Assembly (NCBI GenBank): GCA_040388985.1
Contig: JAZKAU010000001.1
Coordinates: 59,359 to 123,358, forward strand
DNA length: 64,000 nucleotides
Source of the DNA: Patescibacteria group bacterium
GTDB taxonomy: Bacteria > Patescibacteriota > Minisyncoccia > Phycocordibacterales > Phycocordibacteraceae
Reading direction: 5' to 3'
Both the position numbers and the translations under genes were made by a program. Positions 41,485 to 53,164 of this stretch are shown here, in pieces. The notes below the pieces were generated by a model, which searched no databases, was not told the DNA's origin, and saw nothing but the letters and a program-made list of their open reading frames with translations. Numbering within the stretch: the first letter of the stretch is position 1; the number at the start of each line of letters is the position of its first letter.

Positions 41485-43104
41485 ATGAACCTGATCTCTG
41501 CTTCCGTGCGGCGTGGCCTCGTTCACGCGCTCTCGATCGGCACAATTACGACCGCTCTTATATTTCTTGTATCACCAGCCCTTGCGCTCGCGAGCCCACC
41601 TACCTGCACCCTAACCGCAACGCCTTCGACGGTAGACGTAGGGGACCACGTTACCCTGAACTGGGCTTCGACGGGCGCTACGTACGGCACGTGGCTGCAG
41701 GATGCTGCCGCAGCCGTACTCGGACTCTCCGGAGATGCTCTTCTTGCAAGCGGTTCGGAGGATTTTCTTGTCGGAAGCACTACTGGCACGATCACCCCGA
41801 CGCTACAGGTCGCACAGACCGCTAAGACCTTGACCCAGGTGGCCTCGACATCGCTTCCTGCGTTCACGAACGCGATCGGTCTAGAGATCGTCGGAAATTA
41901 TGCCTATGTGGTGGACGCGGGTGCGAGCCATCAATTAGATGTCATCAGCATCGCTAATCCGACTGCGCCTGCGGTAGTCGGAACGACCAGCAGCCTGACG
42001 AACCTGAACGGTGCCTTCTACATCAAGATTTCCGGAAACTACGCCTTTGTCACCGCGACTGGAAGCGATCGCCTCACCGTAGTGGATATATCGAACCCGA
42101 CTGCGCCTGCGGTCGTCGCGTCGCTAAGCGATTCAAGGTTCTCCGCACCGCGCGGCCTGTTCTTGGTCGGAAACTATGCCTATGTAGTCGGGAATAGCCA
42201 AGGGAGTCTCAGCATCGTGGATATCTCGAACCCGCTGGCTCCGGTGATCAAGGGTTCGCTCACTGACTCGACCATACTCAGCGGGGGAGATTCTCTCTTT
42301 GTCGACGGCCGGTATGCCTACGTCACGGCAGGGCAGAGCAGTACGCTTGCCGTTATCGACATAGCTAGCTCGACGGCTCCCGCCATCGTAGGAACGCTGG
42401 TTGACCCGATACGGATGAATAATCCGAAAGAGCTCCTGGTCTCGGGTAACTACGCGTATGTAACGGCCTTAGCAAGCAATGCGCTCGTAATAGTCGATAT
42501 CTCGAGCTCGACCGCGCCTACGATAGTCAGTGCGCTATCAGATACCACCCGGCTCGCAGGGCCGAAGAATCTGACGATATTCGATGGCATTGCATACATC
42601 GCTGCCAATAGCGGTAGGAGTCTGGTAATGGCGGATATTACCGATCCGCATGCCCCATTCATCATTGACTCGAAGAGAGACACGACAAACCTGAGCGATC
42701 CTCGCGGAGTAGCTATAAGTGGCGGCTATATATTCATAGCGTCTGGGAATATATTCGACGTGTTCACGACGGTCGAAACGTCGCTTGCCAGCGATTGCTC
42801 CGCCACTATTACGGTAAGCGGCGGGACGCAGCAGCCTACCGCTACGGTCGACAGCGTCCTGAACAGCGCTGGAAACGCTACGATAAGCGGCACGGCTACC
42901 GGCCCGACCTCGCTCACCGTCATCATCTATCCATCCTTCGATAGTGATACGGTCGTCTATCGCGATGATCAGGTACCGGTGAGCGGCGGCCACTGGTCAG
43001 TGACCGCGCCTCTTCAATCCGGGAGCTATACCGTTGAAGTCCACAGCTCAAGCCAAAGCCCTTCAGCAGGAACGTATCTGACCAGCAGTACGTTCTCGGT
43101 GTAG
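41485..43104 (+). CDS. Secreted LVIVD-repeat beta-propeller protein (paralog 2)
   Basis: Same 539-aa length and repeat architecture as 28694..30313, collinear identity throughout. Confidence 0.65.
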   Translation: MNLISASVRRGLVHALSIGTITTALIFLVSPALALASPPTCTLTATPSTVDVGDHVTLNWASTGATYGTWLQDAAAAVLGLSGDALLASGSEDFLVGSTTGTITPTLQVAQTAKTLTQVASTSLPAFTNAIGLEIVGNYAYVVDAGASHQLDVISIANPTAPAVVGTTSSLTNLNGAFYIKISGNYAFVTATGSDRLTVVDISNPTAPAVVASLSDSRFSAPRGLFLVGNYAYVVGNSQGSLSIVDISNPLAPVIKGSLTDSTILSGGDSLFVDGRYAYVTAGQSSTLAVIDIASSTAPAIVGTLVDPIRMNNPKELLVSGNYAYVTALASNALVIVDISSSTAPTIVSALSDTTRLAGPKNLTIFDGIAYIAANSGRSLVMADITDPHAPFIIDSKRDTTNLSDPRGVAISGGYIFIASGNIFDVFTTVETSLASDCSATITVSGGTQQPTATVDSVLNSAGNATISGTATGPTSLTVIIYPSFDSDTVVYRDDQVPVSGGHWSVTAPLQSGSYTVEVHSSSQSPSAGTYLTSSTFSV

Positions 43105-43186: not shown

Positions 43187-43504
43187 TCTTTGCTTGTTCG
43201 CACTGGCTAATGACTTTAGAACGATAGACTGGGTAAAGGAATACCCGATTCCGGAGATAACCCTGAAGCAGATCTCTACCTGCGGGCAGGATCCTTCCAC
43301 ACCGGGCAGGCAGCTTGCTGTGCAACTACACTTGGATCTTAATAGTAGCTTCGCTCCTTTAAAATCTCGGCGTACACCTTGCGGCTTCTCCTCGAAGACT
43401 CAGAAAATGCTCACAAGGTCTTCGAATCCTGCACGTAAGCGCCCCACGCTTACTCTGGGAAACCAATAAGAAAGCGCCCAAGAGGCGCTTTCTTATTGGT
43501 TTCC

Positions 43505-43530
43505 CTGGCTGTGTGGGACAACGTTGGAAC
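43505..43530 (+). repeat. 26-bp perfect direct repeat, copy 1 (ctggctgtgtgggacaacgttggaac)
   Basis: Identical to 44105-44130, exactly 600 bp apart; both copies lie just after terminator hairpins. Confidence 0.8.
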
Positions 43531-43593: not shown

Positions 43594-43986
43594 TTGTTCC
43601 CACCGTTGGAGGAATGGAAAATGAGACCTACCCCTTGGGCCCTTGCAGCCTTCCGAGTATCCCACCAGCACCCTGAGTCTGATCATCGAGATAGGCTATT
43701 GAAAGATGGGGTGCCCGTGCATCTCATCGATCAGCTCTGCGCAACTCATGCGACCTGCCGGCTCCGACTCCTTCAGATGGAGCTGAAGATCAACTATTCG
43801 GCTATCCCCCATTTCAATAAGTGGATTAGCTGCAAGAAAACCTTTGGCCGTGGCGATGATGAAACCGCTGAATGGTTTGGATTCGTCCGTCGCATTGAAC
43901 AGCTCGAAACGGAGCTTGGCGCAAAGAAACCTCGTGCAGCTCGTCTGCGAGCAAAGCTCAACAAGGTGAGCATGCGACGCGGATAA
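43594..43986 (+). CDS. Hypothetical protein flanked by the 26-bp direct repeats
   Basis: 130-aa ORF with its own terminator (44003-44046). Confidence 0.35.
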   Translation: MFPPLEEWKMRPTPWALAAFRVSHQHPESDHRDRLLKDGVPVHLIDQLCATHATCRLRLLQMELKINYSAIPHFNKWISCKKTFGRGDDETAEWFGFVRRIEQLETELGAKKPRAARLRAKLNKVSMRRG

Positions 43987-44104: not shown

Positions 44105-44130
44105 CTGGCTGTGTGGGACAACGTTGGAAC
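44105..44130 (+). repeat. 26-bp perfect direct repeat, copy 2
   Basis: Identical to 43505-43530. Confidence 0.8.
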
Positions 44131-44909: not shown

Positions 44910-45149
44910 ACAAATCAGTATAGCTTAAATTGGTTAACTCCGAGGGTACGCGAAGCTTGCTCTCGTTCGTCTCCACAGAAAAGAAAATGCCCCTCAGAAG
45001 GGGCGCTTTCTTATCGTTCCAGTTCCCCGAACATCACGTTAATAACATACCGCTCACATTTAATAGGGAATACATGAGTGGGGTGGCTCAACAGCTGTGT
45101 TAGATTAGGCTTATGGAAAGGTTTTCTGAAGTATAATGAGCAAACCCAC

Positions 45150-45755
45150 ATGAACTCTGTCTCAACATTCATCTTTGATTGTTTCGGTGTGATCTGTCAC
45201 CCTGCCGTACACGGCTGGTATGAAGAAAATAGATTAAGGCAAGGATATTCTGATGAACATTTACCGGCAATTTTAGAACAGTTTGACCTCGGAAAGCTAT
45301 CTGAAGATGAACTTGTTGATTACTTCCTGACATACGAGGGAATTAATTCCACAAAAGAAAAGATTCGTGAGGAGATAGATAGCCACTTGGGTTTAGATAC
45401 TGAATTAGCTTCGACTATTAAGAAGCTAAAAGAAAGTGGTTTCAAGACAGCTCTACTATCAAATGGTAACGAGTCTTTCTTTGAGAGAAAGGTCTATCAA
45501 GAATATCCTCAATTCAAGGATCTATTTGATGAAATTGTCATTTCTTCTTCAGTCGGAATGGTAAAGCCTAACGCTGATATCTATCTGCACACTCTCCAAA
45601 TAGTAGGGTCAAGACCTGAAGAATCATTATTTATTGATGACCGTAAGGTAAATGTAGACGCCGCAACTATGCTCGGTATGAATGGCTATGTATATACGAC
45701 AAGTTCTGCTTTCTCTGACTATTTGAAAGATGTGGGTGTTAGTCTTGGGCGGTAG
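45150..45755 (+). CDS. HAD-superfamily hydrolase
   Basis: Motif I FIFDCFGVI (DxxG), motif IV FIDDRKVNVDAA; start set at MNSVSTF. Confidence 0.6.
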   Translation: MNSVSTFIFDCFGVICHPAVHGWYEENRLRQGYSDEHLPAILEQFDLGKLSEDELVDYFLTYEGINSTKEKIREEIDSHLGLDTELASTIKKLKESGFKTALLSNGNESFFERKVYQEYPQFKDLFDEIVISSSVGMVKPNADIYLHTLQIVGSRPEESLFIDDRKVNVDAATMLGMNGYVYTTSSAFSDYLKDVGVSLGR

Positions 45756-45909
45756 GCCCAGAAGTTATATTCGCCTCAGTCTCTGATGCAAAGCAGCCCT
45801 ATGTTATAAGGCTGTTTTGGTTTGCTCCCCCTCGTGGACAAGTTCAGAACTGCGAATTGGGTTGGTATTAAGAGCGAACTTCAGTTCAGTGGCATTCTCA
45901 GCTTCTTTC

Positions 45910-46473
45910 CTACTGCCATAAGCTCTCAGTAAATTCGGGTAGCTTTTCAGCCAAAACATCCATTTCCCGTATGCCTTGGCGCATAATGGTTGGGGTAATT
46001 TTGAGCTTACGGAACTTAATCATCCCGTCCTCCTTCTTTGTCTTTGTATCTACTCTTACATAGCCCTCTGTATCTAGAGTTTGCCATTTAGCGTGGGCTA
46101 TCTTGTTTCTCAGAGTACTAAGCGTTTCAAGCTGTTTTCTGATTGATGCTAGTTGGCTGCTCTTTAAGACCTTCTTCTTTTGAGCCCAATTAACCATCGG
46201 GAAGGCAAGGTTATAGAAAAGCTCTATTTTTGCCGATACTTCCAAATCCTTAATGATGGTATAGCCCTCGTAATGGGAACGGTCATTGATAAGGTTAGCT
46301 ATTTCTACGTCCAAGCTATGCTCCAAATTGCTAAAGCTAATCAGGAAAGAACCTATGTGGATTGCGTACTTTTCCTCTTGCGCTTCCGTTAGTTCATCGC
46401 CAGCACCGTCATATTGGTCTAGCTCCTCATACTTAACTTCAAGAGCTTTTGGTTGCTTGGCTTTAGCTTTCAT
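45910..46473 (-). CDS. HEPN-like protein (RNxxxH motif), last gene of the five-gene operon
   Basis: ...ETLSTLRNKIAHAKW... Rx4-6H HEPN signature; overlaps the upstream Zn-ribbon ORF by 11 nt. Confidence 0.45.
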   Translation of the reverse strand: MKAKAKQPKALEVKYEELDQYDGAGDELTEAQEEKYAIHIGSFLISFSNLEHSLDVEIANLINDRSHYEGYTIIKDLEVSAKIELFYNLAFPMVNWAQKKKVLKSSQLASIRKQLETLSTLRNKIAHAKWQTLDTEGYVRVDTKTKKEDGMIKFRKLKITPTIMRQGIREMDVLAEKLPEFTESLWQ

Positions 46474-46765
46474 TGCTTTTTACAACCTTTTTGGATACCG
46501 CATCAACAAACAACCTAAAAGCAGGTCTTTTCTCCTTCTCGTAAACAACCTTAACCCCAAGGGTATGACCCTTTGGACAGGAAAGCTCCTTCTTGGAAAT
46601 TGCTACGCTTGGCTCATTTATTCGGTCTACGTACATTCGGCGCAGGTTGCCAGCCCCGTCCTTCTGGTAAGAGCAAATAACGGAACTGCACTTCCTGCAC
46701 GAAATTCTCAAAAGCCGTGAATAACCTCCGCGTGCCTTCTTGTATTTGTCGTTCTTAAGCTTCAT
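46463..46765 (-). CDS. Small zinc-ribbon protein
   Basis: CRKCSSVIC ... SCPKGH (CxxC...CxxxH), 100 aa, basic. Confidence 0.4.
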   Translation of the reverse strand: MKLKNDKYKKARGGYSRLLRISCRKCSSVICSYQKDGAGNLRRMYVDRINEPSVAISKKELSCPKGHTLGVKVVYEKEKRPAFRLFVDAVSKKVVKSNES

Positions 46766-46773
46766 ATCAAAGA

Positions 46774-47154
46774 TTATCTTACGATTTGAGTATCAAACCA
46801 TTGCTCCTGAAAGTGAATAGCTGACATAATTTCATCATCAGTCATTTTAATTCCCTCAGGCACAACTACAAGCTTATCGTCGTCATTATCTTTACGATGT
46901 GCAATAGCTATACAGACACCTTTGGCACGGTTAAGAGGTTCGGCTACTCCTAAGTAATAGGCATCTAGGTCTTCACCATCAGGAGCTTTTATTCCTTCTA
47001 TAAATCCATAGTTGGCTTTATACACAAAGCCGTGTTTAGGGTGCTTAGAACCAAGAGTGCGGTCCATAACAACCTCAACCTCCTTTCCTAAGTATTCTTT
47101 TGCAAGTTCAAAGGATTTAGAGGTTTCCATATAAAAAGTTTCGTACCTGCTCAA
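46774..47154 (-). CDS. Truncated family-I inorganic pyrophosphatase-like protein
   Basis: DRTLGSKHPKHGFVYKANYGFIEGI (compare DRF..YPxNYGFIPxT), DGEDLDAYYL (compare DGDPLDVLV), DDKLVVVPEG (compare DxKLxAVP); lacks the N-terminal ~50 aa of canonical PPase. Confidence 0.5.
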   Translation of the reverse strand: MSRYETFYMETSKSFELAKEYLGKEVEVVMDRTLGSKHPKHGFVYKANYGFIEGIKAPDGEDLDAYYLGVAEPLNRAKGVCIAIAHRKDNDDDKLVVVPEGIKMTDDEIMSAIHFQEQWFDTQIVR

Positions 47155-47662
47155 TAGGTTTTATCTGCATATAGGTCTTGTGATCATCTTCAGCAGATAG
47201 TTCAGCCCTTGTAAGGGAATATCCTTCAGGGATAAAAACAGCGTCCCAGCCATAGCCACCTTCACCAGCAGGTTTCTCAGGAACCGTTCCATCCATACCT
47301 CCTTCAAAATAGCTCTCGGTCTGTCCATCAAAGTAGCCAAAGACACAACGTGCCTTTGCACCCCGTTCCTTACCGTCTAGAAGCCGACACAGGCCTTCAA
47401 GCGAAAGCTCTTCAAGAAACCACTTAATAAACGTGCCAGGCAGTCGTCCCAAAGCCGTAAATTCAAGTGCAACATCCTCAACGAGAACTGGACGCTCCAC
47501 TTGAGCATATGCTTGGCGAAGCTTGTGTTTTACAACCTCTTTCAAATCAAGGGACTGAACCTCGTCCAAATCTACCTTTACGTGTTCTATGGGATGCCCA
47601 AGTAGCTGACCGAGATAGTCAGCTTTCTTCTGGTTGCCAGTGATGAATACAACCTCTTTCAT
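47117..47662 (-). CDS. Ham1/RdgB-like non-canonical NTP pyrophosphatase (ITPase family)
   Basis: VFITGNQKKADYL (compare ATGNxGKxxE), PAGEGGYGWDAVFIPEG (compare GxGGFGYDPIFxP). Confidence 0.65.
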   Translation of the reverse strand: MKEVVFITGNQKKADYLGQLLGHPIEHVKVDLDEVQSLDLKEVVKHKLRQAYAQVERPVLVEDVALEFTALGRLPGTFIKWFLEELSLEGLCRLLDGKERGAKARCVFGYFDGQTESYFEGGMDGTVPEKPAGEGGYGWDAVFIPEGYSLTRAELSAEDDHKTYMQIKPIEQVRNFLYGNL

Positions 47663-47664
47663 AA

Positions 47665-48642
47665 TTACTTGTTGCCTACTTCCTCAAATAGGTCTGTGTC
47701 TATCTTTTCTCCCTTTAAGTACTGCTGAATGCACCAATCGCGCATCTTCACGCGCCAAGCCCAAAAGTCGGGATTGCTAGTAGGGTCTTCTTCAGAACCC
47801 TTATCCTTACCACTAGCCCATATGGTCTTAAGTACTAGAAAATCGTCAGAGTACTCACTTAACTTTGGTAAGTCATATGCAATAGCTACACTATCCAGTT
47901 CTGCTATATAACGTGCAATCTGTTCATTACTAAAGCGATAGCGAACCTTGCCTTCAGGCCACATCCTTCCAAAGAAAACATTTGTAAGTCCGTCATATCC
48001 AACGGGACCGAAGCTTGCAAGCTCAAAGTCAATAACGCCATTAGGCAGAATGTTATACGCGTTCAGGTCTGCCTGTATGTAGCCCCACGGTAATGAAAGG
48101 GAACGTTCTGAAGCACGTTCAATTGCCTCCATAAATGGCTCCCTCATCTCTTCAGAAGGTGGGTTATTTCTGATTACATTTGCAAGGGCAATCATTTGAG
48201 CCATTGCTTCCTTGTTCTGAGGAACAAAATTCTTTGGGTTGAACTGCGCCTCGCAGTATTTCTTTACCGCCTCAGTAAATGCATCAAATGTGGCATCACT
48301 TACTACGCCATTTTCTTTGGTTTCCTCAGTGAATTGGTCTGCGAAATTTCTATCACCAATGCTGCTTTCAATGAAGTAGCTTTCTCCTGTCGGAAGTACG
48401 CCTTCTGCTAGAACTTCAGGGACTGGAAAGCCGCGTTCGTGAAGGTCTCGCGTGATATTAAGCTCACCAGCAATCTCTGCTGCACTGTGTGTACGAAGGT
48501 AAGCTGTCCTATCTGTGTTTACGTAAATATCACCACCCATAAGGCGGTCTTTCAGATAGTTGTACGCTATGCCATTCACAGTTATAGCTTCTTTGCCTTT
48601 TTCCATAGTGGGTTCTGTTTGGAGCTTTTCCATTACATTCAT
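47665..48642 (-). CDS. APH/choline-kinase-like phosphotransferase (protein-kinase-like fold)
   Basis: GYIQADLNAYNILPNGVIDFELASFG (Brenner/catalytic-loop + DFE-like motifs). Confidence 0.55.
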   Translation of the reverse strand: MNVMEKLQTEPTMEKGKEAITVNGIAYNYLKDRLMGGDIYVNTDRTAYLRTHSAAEIAGELNITRDLHERGFPVPEVLAEGVLPTGESYFIESSIGDRNFADQFTEETKENGVVSDATFDAFTEAVKKYCEAQFNPKNFVPQNKEAMAQMIALANVIRNNPPSEEMREPFMEAIERASERSLSLPWGYIQADLNAYNILPNGVIDFELASFGPVGYDGLTNVFFGRMWPEGKVRYRFSNEQIARYIAELDSVAIAYDLPKLSEYSDDFLVLKTIWASGKDKGSEEDPTSNPDFWAWRVKMRDWCIQQYLKGEKIDTDLFEEVGNK

Positions 48643-48653
48643 ATTAGCTTAAA

Positions 48654-49928
48654 TTGCTAGGCATTGTAAACTATTGTAAAGCGATGGAAGACGACACATT
48701 CAACTACTTTAACGTAGATATAAATCTCCTTGCCCTGCACGTATTGCTTGAAGGGGCTTTTAGAGGACAAAGCATTTTTACCCTTGAGCGGTTCCTGAAG
48801 GGCAACTACTGGAAGATTGAAGAAATTGAGGAAGATATAAGAGACACCAACGACTACAGTTCTGTTGAAGACCTTGTAATGCATCAGGTCATAGGAATGG
48901 TTGAAGCTCTTGAACTAGGCACAGTAAAGCGAGTAAGCGTGGCTAATCTCTATGGGCTTACAGAGCAAGTTGCAAGGGAAGCTGTAGAAACTAAGGACGG
49001 TACTGAAGACGACGTTGCTTATTACAGTTCTCTCATCAGTGAGCTATACGACCTGAGGAAAAAAGAAGAGGAACAATTTAGAGAGCGACTTGATGCTGGA
49101 TTGCCTTACTCAGAGGCACGTACCAATAGGGCTGACTTTACCAAAGACGACTTTGGAAGGCATATACAAATTATTTCTGCTATATCAACTCCATTCATAG
49201 AGCTAGAGATAGATTTTGACGAACTTAAGACCCAAGAAGCCGACAAATTAATTCATGACTATATACATTCATTTTCGCAGGATGATTATATTGAAAAGAA
49301 GCCATTCTATAGGCAGAAGCGCTTCTACTTTTCAAAGCAGCTTGAGAACTTCTTTGAGTACATCCAGCGTTTTCCTGAAATAGATGGGTATGTAAACATC
49401 CCTTTCTCTGCGCTTAGTGAGCAAGGATTTGAAGTGGTAAAAGTAATGACCTACTTGGAAAGAGAAGCGCGCTTAAAGGTTAGGAACTGGGACGATATTG
49501 AGCTATGGAATGTTAAGTTTCATAAAACTCCAATTACCCTTGCTTCTTTATTGGGACAGGAAACCAAGACCGAGATTAAAGCGATAGATAAGAGCGAGAT
49601 TAAGCTGAACTTAAGTTTTTCTCCAGAGACAGCAATGATGAGCCTGACAGACCAGACGGGCACAGAATATAAAGTTAGGGTTCAAGGGCAAGTTCAAAAG
49701 GAAGTATTACGTGTGATATTCAAAAACCCCAAAGATACGTATACCGAGTGGAGTTTATACGACATTAGCGAGTTGCTTGGTGGACAGGACGTAAACGAGA
49801 CAGCCGTTAAGAACGCCATCTATCAATTCAATAAGAAGACCAAACTTCACCTCCCACAAGTAGAAAATCTCTTTGAGCTGACCAAACATTCAGCACGACT
49901 CAATCCAAAATACGTAAGTCCAGACTAA
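48654..49928 (+). CDS. Hypothetical protein, possible C-terminal winged-helix
   Basis: 424-aa ORF divergent from the kinase operon; no catalytic motif recognised. Confidence 0.35.
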   Translation: MLGIVNYCKAMEDDTFNYFNVDINLLALHVLLEGAFRGQSIFTLERFLKGNYWKIEEIEEDIRDTNDYSSVEDLVMHQVIGMVEALELGTVKRVSVANLYGLTEQVAREAVETKDGTEDDVAYYSSLISELYDLRKKEEEQFRERLDAGLPYSEARTNRADFTKDDFGRHIQIISAISTPFIELEIDFDELKTQEADKLIHDYIHSFSQDDYIEKKPFYRQKRFYFSKQLENFFEYIQRFPEIDGYVNIPFSALSEQGFEVVKVMTYLEREARLKVRNWDDIELWNVKFHKTPITLASLLGQETKTEIKAIDKSEIKLNLSFSPETAMMSLTDQTGTEYKVRVQGQVQKEVLRVIFKNPKDTYTEWSLYDISELLGGQDVNETAVKNAIYQFNKKTKLHLPQVENLFELTKHSARLNPKYVSPD

Positions 49929-49984
49929 GCAAACTTAAGTAAGGCAACAAATAACCTGTAGGGACAACCTACGGGTTGTTTCTT

Positions 49985-50149
49985 ATGCAGGAAACTATCA
50001 GCCCAGAAAAGCCAAAAGAAAGCTTCCAAATACAGAAGCTCTCACTGGAAGAGCGAGACCGCTTAGTTAGCTTCTTTGCGCTGCTTCTCAAGGTTGATAA
50101 GCGAGTAAATCCTGCACTTTACCAGATTAAGAAAACACAAAATGATTGA
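49985..50149 (+). CDS. Small protein (54 aa) translationally coupled to the Rep gene
   Basis: MQETISPEKPKESFQIQKLSLEERDRLVSFFALLLKVDKRVNPALYQIKKTQND; its stop overlaps the rep start (ATGATTGA). Confidence 0.3.
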   Translation: MQETISPEKPKESFQIQKLSLEERDRLVSFFALLLKVDKRVNPALYQIKKTQND

Positions 50150-51302
50150 TACCGTCTGTCTTCTCATACCGAAAGACAGAATTACCGTAGTTGATATGTC
50201 TCAGCGCGGAGTACCTTCTTGGAACCTGCACTCAAGGACAGACCAATACGATAAATACGTAAAGAACCCTTCAAAACGGGACTTGGATAGTGGGCAGTAC
50301 TTCCCGCGTCTAACTGGCTACAAGCGCAAAAGCTTTGCCCAAGAAGCAAATGTACGGATAGAGTTTTCAGCTCCAAAGCTGCTCTTCCTGAACAATCTTG
50401 ACGAGCTTACGGATAAGGACTTTCCACGGCTCATTGAGACACTTCAAGACCGACTTATGACTATGGGAATTGTTGTATCAAAACCAGTGTTGGCAAATGC
50501 TTCTGTAAGCTCAGTGCACTTCTCAAAGAATATCTTGCTTCAAGACGGTTATACGTCTAACCACCTCATTTCTGAGATGAACAAGATAGACCTTAGGAAG
50601 AGCTTTGATTTTGCACGGACTAGGTACATCAATGACGGTCAAAGCTTGTACGCTCATACCACCGCACATCAGCTAGTTATCTACGACAAAGTAGCTGACT
50701 TGGGCAAGGACAAGAAACGAGCGATAGACAAAGAGCAGACACCTTACCAGCGGAACCTGTTTGGCGAGTTGCTGAAGGATAAAGACGTTAAAGAGATTAT
50801 CCGCTTTGAGGTACGTCTGAACCATAAGCAGAAGCTCAATAAGCTCTTGGAGCAGTTAGGGTACGACAAGAACCCGACCTTCAAGCAGGTATTCCGAAGT
50901 GATGTGAGCAAAGCAGTAGTTATGGACTACTGGAAGAAGTTGATTAAGGAGCGGAACCTAGGACTGTTTTCTATCGCCATTAGCATTAAAGACATATTGA
51001 GGACGTTGTTTATGGCAGACAAAACCCTGAAGCCGAAACAGGCAATCTATCTGCTGGGTCTCTTTATGCTTGCACGTGATGAGAACGGAATGCGACAGCT
51101 AAGAAGTATCGTCTCAAAAAGGTCTCACGATAGAACGTGGTATCGGATAGCAAAGGATATGCAGAACGCCAGTGCACTTATTACTAAGAACAAGCTTAGG
51201 GACTGGGTCTCACAGCTTGATAAAGGTTTGGACGATTATCAGCCGTATAGGGTATCAAGAGATGAAGAAAACAAATCAGACAAAGGCAAGAAAGCTTCTT
51301 AA
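50142..51302 (+). CDS. Replication initiation protein, Rep_trans-like
   Basis: 386 aa; HQLVIYDK... and IIRFEVRL... segments resemble Rep_trans RIE/YDK motifs; element context. Confidence 0.45.
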   Translation: MIDTVCLLIPKDRITVVDMSQRGVPSWNLHSRTDQYDKYVKNPSKRDLDSGQYFPRLTGYKRKSFAQEANVRIEFSAPKLLFLNNLDELTDKDFPRLIETLQDRLMTMGIVVSKPVLANASVSSVHFSKNILLQDGYTSNHLISEMNKIDLRKSFDFARTRYINDGQSLYAHTTAHQLVIYDKVADLGKDKKRAIDKEQTPYQRNLFGELLKDKDVKEIIRFEVRLNHKQKLNKLLEQLGYDKNPTFKQVFRSDVSKAVVMDYWKKLIKERNLGLFSIAISIKDILRTLFMADKTLKPKQAIYLLGLFMLARDENGMRQLRSIVSKRSHDRTWYRIAKDMQNASALITKNKLRDWVSQLDKGLDDYQPYRVSRDEENKSDKGKKAS

Positions 51303-51439
51303 ACGGAACTTCTTTATGGAAGCTCTCGTAGTGGAGTTGGATGCTGAAAAGAAGTGGAAGAGGGCAAAGAAAGCACAGAAGAAAGGACGGACGCTGTCCA
51401 CTTAGTAGGTTTGTTATGTAAAGAATTGTAAAGTAATAT

Positions 51440-51619
51440 ATGACTATGCAAAAAGAGTTTTACACGGCGCAGGAGCTAGCCGATAAGCTTCAAGTTAATG
51501 TTATGACTATCTACCGCTATATTGGCGCAGGTAAGCTTAAGGCGCATAAAATTGGAAAGTCGTTCCGTATCCCAAGGGCTACTTTTGAGAAGTTCCTTGA
51601 AGCCACTAAAACTAAGTAG
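51440..51619 (+). CDS. xis: Excisionase-family HTH DNA-binding protein (59 aa)
   Basis: YTAQELADKLQVNVMTIYRYIGAGKLKAHKIGKSFRIPRATFEKFLE matches the excisionase-family DNA-binding domain pattern; not in the track (<60 aa). Confidence 0.6.
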   Translation: MTMQKEFYTAQELADKLQVNVMTIYRYIGAGKLKAHKIGKSFRIPRATFEKFLEATKTK

Positions 51620-51622
51620 CTT

Positions 51623-52096
51623 ATGAAAACACTTACAGAATTGAACAGCAAATGGTGGTACCGACTACTGAAGGTACTCTATATAATCCTAGCTCTGATT
51701 ATTCTAGGAGTATCTATAGCACTTATAGTCGTATCAAATGCGCCAGAGTTTGATAACAAAGCATCGTATGTGCAATGTGATGATGGACGTACTTTTCCTG
51801 TAGATAAAATAGGGATGTATAGCGATTTTGTTGATAGCTATAACGATAGAAACTTCCGCACGTGGTGTGCAACCACTCTAGTAGAAGAAAACGGTGTACA
51901 AAAACTGAAGCCAATAAATGGGTTCGTGCCAGACGAAAAGAACTTTACTTTTGTGGCTAAAGAAACTGCACGCAACTGGATGGGCACTATAGGGTATTCG
52001 GTTATTGCTCTTGTTGTAGTGCTACTACTATCCGAGCTTCTTAGGAGGATGTTCTACTACATAACTCTGGGTTCCATACGTCCTAAACGGCAATGA
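51623..52096 (+). CDS. Membrane protein, unknown function
   Basis: 157 aa, N- and C-terminal TM helices. Confidence 0.35.
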   Translation: MKTLTELNSKWWYRLLKVLYIILALIILGVSIALIVVSNAPEFDNKASYVQCDDGRTFPVDKIGMYSDFVDSYNDRNFRTWCATTLVEENGVQKLKPINGFVPDEKNFTFVAKETARNWMGTIGYSVIALVVVLLLSELLRRMFYYITLGSIRPKRQ

Positions 52097-52907
52097 AAGC
52101 AGTAAATGTCTCAAGAGTATCAACGGAAGAACAAAAAGAAGCTGGTAATTCGCTACCCGCTCAGTTTGAGCGCATAGACAGCTACTGCAAGAATAAGTCC
52201 TTTGATGTAATTGAGACATTTAGCTTTGACGAAAGTGCTTATAAAGAGAAGCGAGACGAATTTGATAAGCTCCTTGAATTTGTTCAAGAAGCCGCAAAGA
52301 AGGAAAAGATAGCGGTTTGCTTTGATAAGGTAGACCGTTTGTCTAGGAGTGTCTTTGACACTCGCGTCGCCACTCTCTATGAAATGGCTGTTGCTGACAG
52401 GATAGAACTGCACTTCGTTTCAGAAGGACAGGTCATCAATAACAAAATGTCAGCCGTTGAGAAGTTTCAGTTCGGAATGAGCTTAGGTCTAGCAAAGTAT
52501 TACTCGGACGCGATTGGCGATAACGTCAGACGTGCCTTTGAGCAAAAGCGCAGGAATGGAGAATTACTAAGGACATATATGACAAAAAGCATCAGGACTA
52601 CCACGACCAGCTTCAGGTCTTGGAAATTGAAATGTCAGAACACAGGAAAGCAGATTATGACTACCAAACCACGGTAGCTACAGTGCTTTCTGTCGCTCGC
52701 AGGGCAAAGCAAATCTTTGAAAGTTCTGAAGCTGCAGAAAAACGAGCGTTCCTGAACTACCTACTTCAGAACCCGAGTGTAAACGGAAAAAAGCTATATT
52801 TTTCAATAGCTTCTCCGTTCAATCTAGTCCTAGAACTAGCTGATAACCCTAACTGGCTCCGCGGGCAGGATTCGAACCTGCGACCAAGTCGTTACACATT
52901 ATCCTAA
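52093..52907 (+). pseudogene. Serine recombinase (resolvase catalytic domain) with a frameshift near 52545-52560; the downstream frame reads into tRNA-Asn
   Basis: VSRVSTEEQ catalytic Ser motif, DRLSRS; ORF 52093..52677 and ORF 52620..52907 are in different frames and rejoin as ...FEQKRRNGEW/RITKD...; C-terminal ...LRGQDSNLRPS is a translation of the tRNA T-arm. Confidence 0.55.
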
Positions 52908-53164
52908 AGTTTCCTAAAGGGGTGGACTATATCATCATCGGGTCTCGATGCGAGGCGCTTCCGATCCGCCAACTGGCGGACAGTACTCCCTTACGGGATA
53001 GTCTCTACACCTTCCAAGTCTTATCGCTAGATAAATCTTGGCTTGGCTCGGGATTGCCCTTGCTTTCGCAATAGGGTTTCCCCGAATTCACCTCGTTTGC
53101 AACCAGGATTCCTCCTGGAGGCTGCCATTGACAGCGACCTGCTCTACCACTGAGCTACCGCGGA
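52854..53164 (-). tRNA. tRNA-Asn (GUU) interrupted by a 236-nt group I intron between anticodon-loop positions 35 and 36; CCA encoded
   Basis: 5' exon TCCGCGGTAGCTCAGTGGTAGAGCAGGTCGCTGT (53164-53131), 3' exon TAACGACTTGGTCGCAGGTTCGAATCCTGCCCGCGGAGCCA (52894-52854); U1:A72 and G73 as in bacterial tRNA-Asn; loop CUGUUAA. Confidence 0.7.
52895..53130 (-). ncRNA. Group I intron (IC3-like, tRNA-intron type)
   Basis: P1: exon GCUGU pairs with intron GCAGC (U.G at the splice site); core GGUGAAUUCGGGGAAACCCUA...CCCGAGCCAAGCC...AAGGUGUAGAGACUA closely resembles Azoarcus tRNA-Ile and cyanobacterial tRNA-Leu introns; ends in omega-G. Confidence 0.7.

Follow-up and report, generated by a model that had tools for sequence, protein, structure and literature searches.

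The 64,000-nucleotide stretch of DNA analysed here (the window) comes from a metagenome-assembled genome of a Patescibacterium, and our study concerns five minus-strand genes lying between positions 45910 and 48642 together with the integrative element which carries them. The first gene encodes an APH/choline-kinase-fold phosphotransferase of 322-325 aa (47665-48642), and it is followed by genes for a Ham1/RdgB-family non-canonical nucleoside triphosphate (NTP) pyrophosphatase of 181 aa (47117-47662), a short family-I inorganic-pyrophosphatase-like protein (PPase) of 118 aa counted from its ATG (46774-47130), a small basic, putatively zinc-binding protein of 100 aa, termed Znr (46463-46765), and, as the last gene, a probable HEPN-superfamily protein of 187 aa with predicted RNase activity (45910-46473). 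An earlier sequence-only reading had proposed these genes as a novel five-gene defence or toxin system, and the five minus-strand open reading frames (ORFs) and their packing were found as it had described them. Gaps of 2 nt separate the kinase stop from the Ham1 ATG and of 8 nt the PPase stop from the Znr ATG; Ham1 and PPase overlap by 14 nt and Znr and HEPN by 11 nt. The ORFs are real, and two of the starts call for revision. Translation of the kinase probably begins at M4 (48633), and the NCBI call is likewise a protein of 322 aa. For the PPase, the ATG at 47130 is an alternative to the TTG at 47154, which would extend the overlap with Ham1 to 38 nt.

A divergent promoter region with TTTACA repeats (48634-48683, minus strand) lies ahead of the kinase gene and was recognised by a promoter scan and by the presence of the same repeats in relatives. 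The scan placed a -10-like hexamer, TAATAT, 7 nt ahead of the M4 ATG, a spacing from which the first gene is probably leaderless, and the relatives suggest a shared operator. The five genes are likely to form a single transcription unit. The sequence-only reading had taken the packing to mean one co-translated unit; co-transcription is the part of this which is likely to stand. When same-strand junctions were scored with a rough ATG-only ORF caller, tight ones (10 nt or less) numbered 10 out of 42 for the window and reached 33% of 638 for 80 Patescibacteria loci, and four consecutive tight junctions occur in 3 of these 80 loci of 12 kb. Such junctions are ordinary in these genomes, so the packing argues for co-transcription and is no evidence of a dedicated system.

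The genes are located, as had been supposed, inside a mobile element. It is an integrated serine-recombinase element of about 7.0 kb (45824-52860), delimited by recombinase pieces, junction alignments, crossover cores and GC content. The junction alignments place the beginning of the attL core GCTCC at 45824 and the attR core TGGCTCC at 52854-52860, and the GC content is 39-46% (about 42%) within the element/island in comparison to 55-61% (about 55%) in the flanks. An earlier estimate of the left edge at about 43.3 kb, taken from the GC profile and a remnant resembling a tRNA 3' end, was replaced by attL at 45824 after the C-terminal piece of the recombinase was found. An intact recombinase of 547 aa from a related locus (L086, 1187-2830) aligns to the window in three separate pieces: residues 1-157 with 52093-52563, residues 403-513 with 52563-52859 in a different reading frame, and the last ~30 codons with 45825-45911, immediately past the HEPN stop. 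This third piece (plus strand; tblastn, L086 residues 513-541, 76% identity) is the detached 3' end of the recombinase gene, amounting to its last ~29 codons, and it forms the attL half of attP. As the recombinase tail has been split off to the other end of the element, the recombinase gene harbours attP within its 3' end. The same C-terminal peptide also stands behind HEPN in L086, L088/L097, L089, L091, L093, L100 and L110. Reconstruction of attL, attR and attP showed that the crossover core GCTCC is the extreme 3' end of a tRNA, and that integration swaps the last ~30 recombinase codons for tRNA-antisense sequence.

The right end of the element holds a serine recombinase pseudogene (52093-52907, plus strand) with an intact catalytic domain, a frameshift at about 52563 and a 3' end running antisense into the tRNA. 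Its N-terminal part matches the phrog_95 integrase (E 5.5e-23), and in comparison to the L086 protein the pseudogene lacks about 245 internal residues, which cover the Recombinase and Zn-ribbon domains. The relatives in L086, L100 and L110 are full-length (513-547 aa) and contain the Resolvase, Recombinase and Zn_ribbon_recom domains. With this deletion the recombinase function is probably lost and the window element probably immobile. The locus is that of a large-serine-recombinase element, as it has the catalytic domain, the att sites and an excisionase-like helix-turn-helix (HTH) gene, the other recombinase domains being found in relatives.

The backbone of the element (48654-51619, plus strand) is conserved in relatives and comprises orf424 (48654/48684-49928), orf57 (49976-50149), orf386 (50142-51302) and the excisionase-like HTH gene (51440-51619), which matches excisionase PHROGs. 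These genes are 33-78% identical in L089, L091, L100 and L110. No match was obtained for orf424 or orf386 in Pfam, PHROG or PDB profile searches, and the element has no recognisable genes for conjugation, a capsid or replication. A phage or plasmid origin was rejected, as a tblastn search of phage and plasmid collections with orf386 gave no match and IMG/VR held nothing for orf386 or for the HEPN alignment. The integration target is a tRNA-Asn(GUU) gene (52854-53164, minus strand), whose exons were read by eye and whose group I intron, at about 52895-53130 and at anticodon position 35/36, was identified with Rfam (Intron_gpI, 70 bits). ARAGORN misses this tRNA because of the intron inside it. 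Introns of this class have been described recently in Patescibacteria (PMC13011429). At the corresponding site L001, L088 and L110 carry intron-less tRNA-Asn orthologues, and the site, which lies beside PriA-def-fmt, is occupied by related elements or islands in L001, L088/L097 and L110.

The HEPN-like protein is central to the interpretation. The RNxxxH motif which had been read in it is real: it forms an Rx4H motif (R122-N-K-I-A-H127) fitting the conserved Rx4-6H of the HEPN superfamily, and R122, N123, A126 and H127 are invariant across 30 homologues of 42-88% identity. No curated HEPN profile was reached, the best Pfam score of the window protein being 15.6 bits for RiboL-PSP-HEPN against a cut-off of 28.4. 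When the 30 family members were compared with Pfam, 12 of them matched RiboL-PSP-HEPN (best E 4.7e-4), seven Cthe2314-HEPN and three Abi_2, all below the cut-offs. PADLOC gave sub-threshold matches to the HEPN regions of Cas13c and Csx1 (E 0.001-0.007) and to PD-T4-2_B (E 0.001 or weaker). Foldseek gave no informative match in the PDB, and a search of the PDB at the level of sequence profiles returned only a spurious AspRS match. From the invariant Rx4H and the sub-threshold HEPN matches, membership of the HEPN superfamily is probable. The family calls of the sequence-only reading thus stood above the Pfam cut-offs for APH, Ham1 and a short Pyrophosphatase, and only as a probable one for HEPN.

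HEPN is the sole gene of the five which is conserved across the element family. Its homologues travel with the backbone, that is with orf424, orf57, orf386, the excisionase-like HTH gene and the recombinase. A TTTAC(A/T)-repeat region between orf424 and the leftward unit is conserved in the window and in L086, L091, L093, L096, L100 and L110; it lies directly ahead of HEPN in L086, L091, L093, L096 and L110 and, in the window and L100, ahead of a kinase. HEPN thus stands directly behind a promoter region divergent from orf424 in L086, L091, L096 and L110, and in L088/L097 only the tRNA, a recombinase remnant, HEPN and an att piece are left.

The contents of the slot between this promoter and HEPN are interchangeable. 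The slot holds APH-APH-HEPN in L100-L103; on two contigs compared by gene tables it holds APH-Znr-APH beside an orf424-like gene (P0012) and DUF218-Znr-HEPN (P0117), where a partial HEPN (P0070) is 99% identical to that of the window. The APH kinase is the commonest occupant. The junction with HEPN is constant, in that the differing upstream genes all extend 11 nt into the HEPN ORF, and the gene upstream of HEPN shares its final codons (QSNDN* in L100, KSNES* in the window). The gene-neighbourhood comparison recovered the order of the five window genes only from assemblies which are 99.9-100% identical to the window and so represent the same population. No other locus compared contains the kinase-Ham1-PPase block. 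These observations tell against the proposed five-gene system, and a search of PADLOC-DB 2.0 agreed with the earlier statement that no described system is matched, with no match for Ham1, PPase or Znr, an E value of 0.055 for the kinase and no significant match for any component.

The zinc-binding protein was also followed outside the element. It had been called a Zn-ribbon protein; it matches no Pfam family and models as a putative beta-tent domain (Yippee/Mis18/MsrB/CULT-like) rather than a simple zinc ribbon. More than 420 homologues at 60-80% identity were found, and the family is unannotated and strongly conserved across many Patescibacteria lineages (the window and loci L006-L085). Of 174 genome stretches with a match, 80 loci from species-representative genomes were retained, and their neighbourhoods were compared. 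HEPN, the kinase or PPase was a neighbour of Znr in none of the 80, and no conserved neighbour family was seen in these loci, the neighbourhoods being highly variable. Most HEPN copies in turn have no Znr neighbour. The suggestion that Znr and HEPN form an antitoxin/toxin or sensor/effector pair was therefore given up, the role of Znr as an antitoxin or sensor of HEPN being rejected on the 80 Znr loci together with the HEPN-containing loci. In three loci (L025, L037 and L065) Znr was seen at the tRNA-Asn hot spot, close to its def or def-fmt genes.

The kinase matches PF01636 (E 2.6e-8, 34.3 bits against a cut-off of 23.2) and matched no other kinase family and no specific resistance or metabolic family. 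Its catalytic loop DLNAYN lies at residues 192-197 (D192-x4-N197) and the metal-binding IDFE at 204-207; D189, N194, D202 and E204, numbered from M4, are invariant in 26 homologues. A profile search of the PDB with the kinase came closest to a hygromycin-B kinase and an APH-like protein, neither match being significant. A copy which is 85% identical lies at the syntenic tRNA-Asn site of another genome without the other four genes, where the core flanks are only 56-60% identical. Other copies were found in a ribosomal protein operon, beside toxin-antitoxin pairs and, in a Trueperaceae chromosome, next to a serine recombinase, and in total the kinase occurs without the other operon genes in at least six other contexts.

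Ham1 covers profile positions 1-182 of 186 in PF01725 (E 2.3e-33, 116.1 bits against a cut-off of 22.5); with the NCBIfam XTP/dITP diphosphatase models it scores 110 bits (cut-off 203) and 98 bits (cut-off 145), so the equivalog level is not reached. The PPase scores 25.8 bits with PF00719 (cut-off 23.5) over profile positions 20-104 of 153, its 118 aa comparing with ~170 in full-length enzymes, and PDB pyrophosphatases align with it over the NYG, DGxxLD and DxKLVxVP motifs (E 0.009-0.1). With the Pfam InPase family PF18823 it scores 14.1 bits, below the cut-off of 26.8. A full HMMER scan of 1.84 billion representative sequences gave 1555 representatives related to the PPase. Among the best 150 of these, 100 are longer than 165 aa, i.e. 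fusions, and their partners include NUDIX (19), GNAT (about 10), AAA_33 (6) and AAA_18 (4), further GrpB, HIT, 2H, Tpt1 and others; the Rosetta-stone test for a Ham1-PPase fusion found none in the same 150. Iyer et al. (2017, PMC5512222) have described a short InPase group fused or linked to NUDIX, GNAT and TmrB, which they proposed to remove pyrophosphate (PPi) or to hydrolyse a nucleotide-like substrate. By its shortened core and its NUDIX, GNAT and P-loop partners the window protein belongs to this short InPase type. It resembles the short InPase of phage polyvalent proteins and their relatives in the core of ~110 residues, the acidic metal-binding motifs and the NUDIX, GNAT and P-loop kinase partners (PMC5512222), and differs from them in being a stand-alone gene overlapping Ham1, a link absent from the best 150 relatives. 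It had been supposed that Ham1 releases PPi and the PPase consumes it. As short PPases are frequently fused with NUDIX and nucleotidyltransferase domains, and in agreement with Iyer et al. (PMC5512222), this pairing is reasonable by analogy and a functional pair of a PPi-releasing and a PPi-hydrolysing enzyme is plausible, although no conserved linkage was seen.

Taken together, we regard it as probable that the five genes, though transcribed as one unit, differ in origin and lie on an integrative element of about 7 kb which is in decay in a Patescibacterium, and that four passenger genes have been spliced in before a HEPN gene belonging to the backbone. The element would have entered the 3' end of tRNA-Asn by means of a large serine recombinase with attP inside its own gene. 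In the element family HEPN is the one conserved outward-facing gene, solitary and next to the att site, and driven by the TTTAC-repeat promoter divergent from orf424. In the window copy the APH-fold kinase, Ham1, the short PPase and the putative beta-tent zinc protein would have been inserted between promoter and HEPN, drawn from a pool of small accessory enzymes moving among the variable regions of Patescibacteria. Members of such a pool (kinases, Ham1, NUDIX, histidine phosphatases, GNATs and methyltransferases) do recur in variable regions and at this hot spot. In function, Ham1 would probably convert non-canonical NTPs to nucleoside monophosphates and PPi and the short PPase would then clear the PPi, which amounts to a cleaning of the nucleotide pool. 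The kinase probably acts on a small molecule, e.g. an antibiotic, which it would inactivate or salvage. For HEPN, a role as a latent RNase is probable, serving the element in abortive infection, competitor exclusion or stabilisation, and it would act independently of the four upstream genes.

Several points weigh against this interpretation. The sample is small, with about eight elements having a recognisable backbone, and the contexts surveyed were those of a limited number of kinase, Znr and HEPN homologues. The membership of HEPN in its superfamily is itself below curated thresholds. APH kinases recur in the slot of three related elements, which raises a possible kinase-HEPN link. One further genome (the P0066 contig, also compared by gene table) has a short PPase at ~4 kb from a HEPN homologue, the only other place where a short PPase and this HEPN family occur within 5 kb. 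Lastly, the single strand, the one likely promoter and the overlapping junctions shared by all five genes would fit a true system as well. On the P0066 contig the HEPN homologue is free of the backbone and ends a string of enzyme genes encoding GNAT, a short PPase of 148 aa, DHH and a histidine phosphatase.

A bolder form of the interpretation, which seems rather unlikely to us, would make the stretch between promoter and HEPN a gene-capture slot of an undescribed Patescibacteria element family, integron-like and of unknown mechanism, with HEPN as its solitary latent RNase effector. Unrelated small genes (APH, Ham1, short PPase, beta-tent and DUF218) would be exchanged in it codon-tight, without recognisable recombination sites. 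As in integron cassette arrays, a promoter is followed by unrelated, co-oriented small genes which vary between close relatives, beside a site-specific recombinase. Unlike integrons, the recombinase is of the serine type and not an IntI tyrosine recombinase, the 2-8-nt gaps and the overlaps leave no room for attC, and the last gene, HEPN, is fixed. Integron-like cassettes in the strict sense were rejected on the recombinase type and on a search between the operon genes, where no attC-like repeats or other repeat family were found.

An equally doubtful alternative, which partly overlaps the mixed-origin account, is that the four upstream genes are a coherent detoxification cargo directed against a nucleoside, nucleotide or aminoglycoside-type antibiotic, HEPN being an unrelated backbone gene. 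The kinase would modify the drug or nucleoside, Ham1 would hydrolyse a toxic NTP analogue and the PPase would remove PPi. The overlap of the Ham1 and PPase genes and their complementary chemistry are in keeping with this scheme, as are the fusions and links of short PPases to NUDIX, GNAT and P-loop kinases, their link to TmrB-like proteins according to Iyer et al. (PMC5512222), and the weak, non-significant kinase matches mentioned above. It accounts less well for the restriction of the kinase-Ham1-PPase block to this locus among those compared and for the lack of a Ham1 fusion in the best 150 PPase relatives, and Znr has no role in it.

The possible kinase-HEPN link noted above can be extended to a two-part module, in which one or more APH kinases regulate, neutralise or cooperate with HEPN and in which Ham1, PPase and Znr are later insertions; we consider it distinctly improbable. 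An APH gene occupies the slot of the window, and there are two copies in L100-L103 and two on the P0012 contig beside the orf424-like gene. However, at least five HEPN copies behind the promoter are free of a kinase (L086, L091, L096 and L110, with L088 as a remnant), homologues of the kinase usually occur apart from HEPN, at least six copies being HEPN-free, and the elements of the window and L100 are close relatives, so that the kinase may represent a single acquisition. Weakest of all, and highly improbable, is one dedicated five-gene defence or toxin system, with HEPN as effector, Znr as its antitoxin or sensor and a nucleotide signal produced or destroyed by the kinase, Ham1 and PPase, or with RNA healing involving a nearby HAD phosphatase: it could call upon the tight same-strand packing behind a single promoter-like site, the mobile element whose relatives bear restriction-modification cargo and the probable HEPN with its invariant Rx4H, and it is opposed by co-occurrence confined to near-identical assemblies, a HEPN which is solitary in most elements, the 80 of 80 Znr loci without HEPN, the kinase standing alone in its other contexts, a HAD gene outside the element, the lack of a PADLOC match and the commonness of tight packing in these genomes.

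The RNA-repair logic in this last proposal, combining HEPN cleavage with healing by a kinase and the HAD phosphatase, was rejected separately. The HAD-family phosphatase gene (45078-45755, plus strand; Pfam HAD) is situated left of attL (45824), beyond the element, and the kinase matches the APH family only, with its protein-kinase-like fold. HAD is not conserved beside HEPN, the only copy being that of L093 (38% identical and more than 2 kb away), and in the window it lies in an older low-GC stretch at about 43.2-45.8 kb.

The mixed-origin element can be compared with several known systems. It is similar to tRNA-targeting large-serine-recombinase elements and prophages in its Resolvase-family catalytic domain, excisionase-like HTH, insertion at a tRNA 3' end and low-GC cargo. 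Elements with attP inside the integrase gene represent the SSV1-type arrangement of archaeal viruses, and the likeness here is that integration splits off the last ~30 recombinase codons. In contrast to those integrative elements, the present family is very small (about 5-7 kb) and resides in Patescibacteria, orf386 and orf424 have no recognisable family, and the recombinase of the window is a deletion pseudogene. The HEPN-like protein is comparable to the solitary or plasmid-borne HEPN Abi proteins (Abi_2/AbiD-AbiF) and to RiboL-PSP-HEPN in its Rx4H near the end of a long helix and perhaps in a helical-bundle fold, and it shares with solitary HEPN Abi proteins a location on a mobile element where no adjacent partner is required. 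It differs in scoring below all Pfam HEPN cut-offs and in a beta-hairpin insert after the motif; AbiD and AbiF are also longer than its 187 aa. A HEPN-MNT type II toxin-antitoxin arrangement does not fit, as neither the window nor any related element places an MNT nucleotidyltransferase next to HEPN, and Znr is not conserved with HEPN; Pfam found no nucleotidyltransferase in the operon, and none lies beside HEPN in related loci whose neighbours were annotated or tested.

Some further features of the element family were observed. L110 (10224-11957) contains a second element in tandem, whose recombinase ORF is completed by the left-over C-terminal piece of the first element, which means that tandem insertion restores a full-length recombinase gene. 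A second cargo slot exists in the interval between recombinase and HTH, and in relatives its cargo is of defence type: it holds an R.HinP1I-like endonuclease and a C5 methylase in L110 (3877-5671), an N6/N4 DNA methylase in L091 (658-2445) and a 157-aa membrane protein in the window (51623-52096). In L022 (2583-5146) four tandem C-terminal scar peptides of the recombinase (LPLVDEFRTLNW...), ~700-950 bp apart, lie just upstream of the Zn-protein gene, an array which points to successive rounds of integration and decay at a single site.

To the left of the element, the interval at about 43194-43292 contains a degenerate scar-like peptide (LANDFRTIDWV) and, after it, sequence similar to attR and a tRNA 3' end (GATAACCCT...GCGGGCAGGAT). 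This remnant may be the far end of an older low-GC island (43.2-45.8 kb) with SRPBCC, membrane-protein and HAD genes. Within it, a perfect 26-nt direct repeat (43505-43530 and 44105-44130) brackets a 600-bp segment of higher GC content, which may be a small insertion; the ORF inside it (43594-43986) has no Pfam match. Just left of the low-GC region, positions 41485-43104 encode a secreted-looking protein of 539 aa with LVIVD repeats (beta-propeller).

This study has removed a false lead, as tight packing and attractive domains are no evidence of a multi-gene system in the compact genomes of Patescibacteria. It has pointed to an apparently undescribed family of small elements with a serine recombinase, a tRNA-Asn target, restriction-modification or enzyme cargo and a HEPN-like gene which is always kept. 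The tRNA-Asn site is a hot spot where elements pile up, decay and leave small accessory enzyme genes behind, and the putative beta-tent zinc protein and the short PPase module are two unannotated, widespread families. If HEPN is indeed a stand-alone RNase for defence or stabilisation, it would be among the few immune-type functions on mobile elements of this uncultured phylum.

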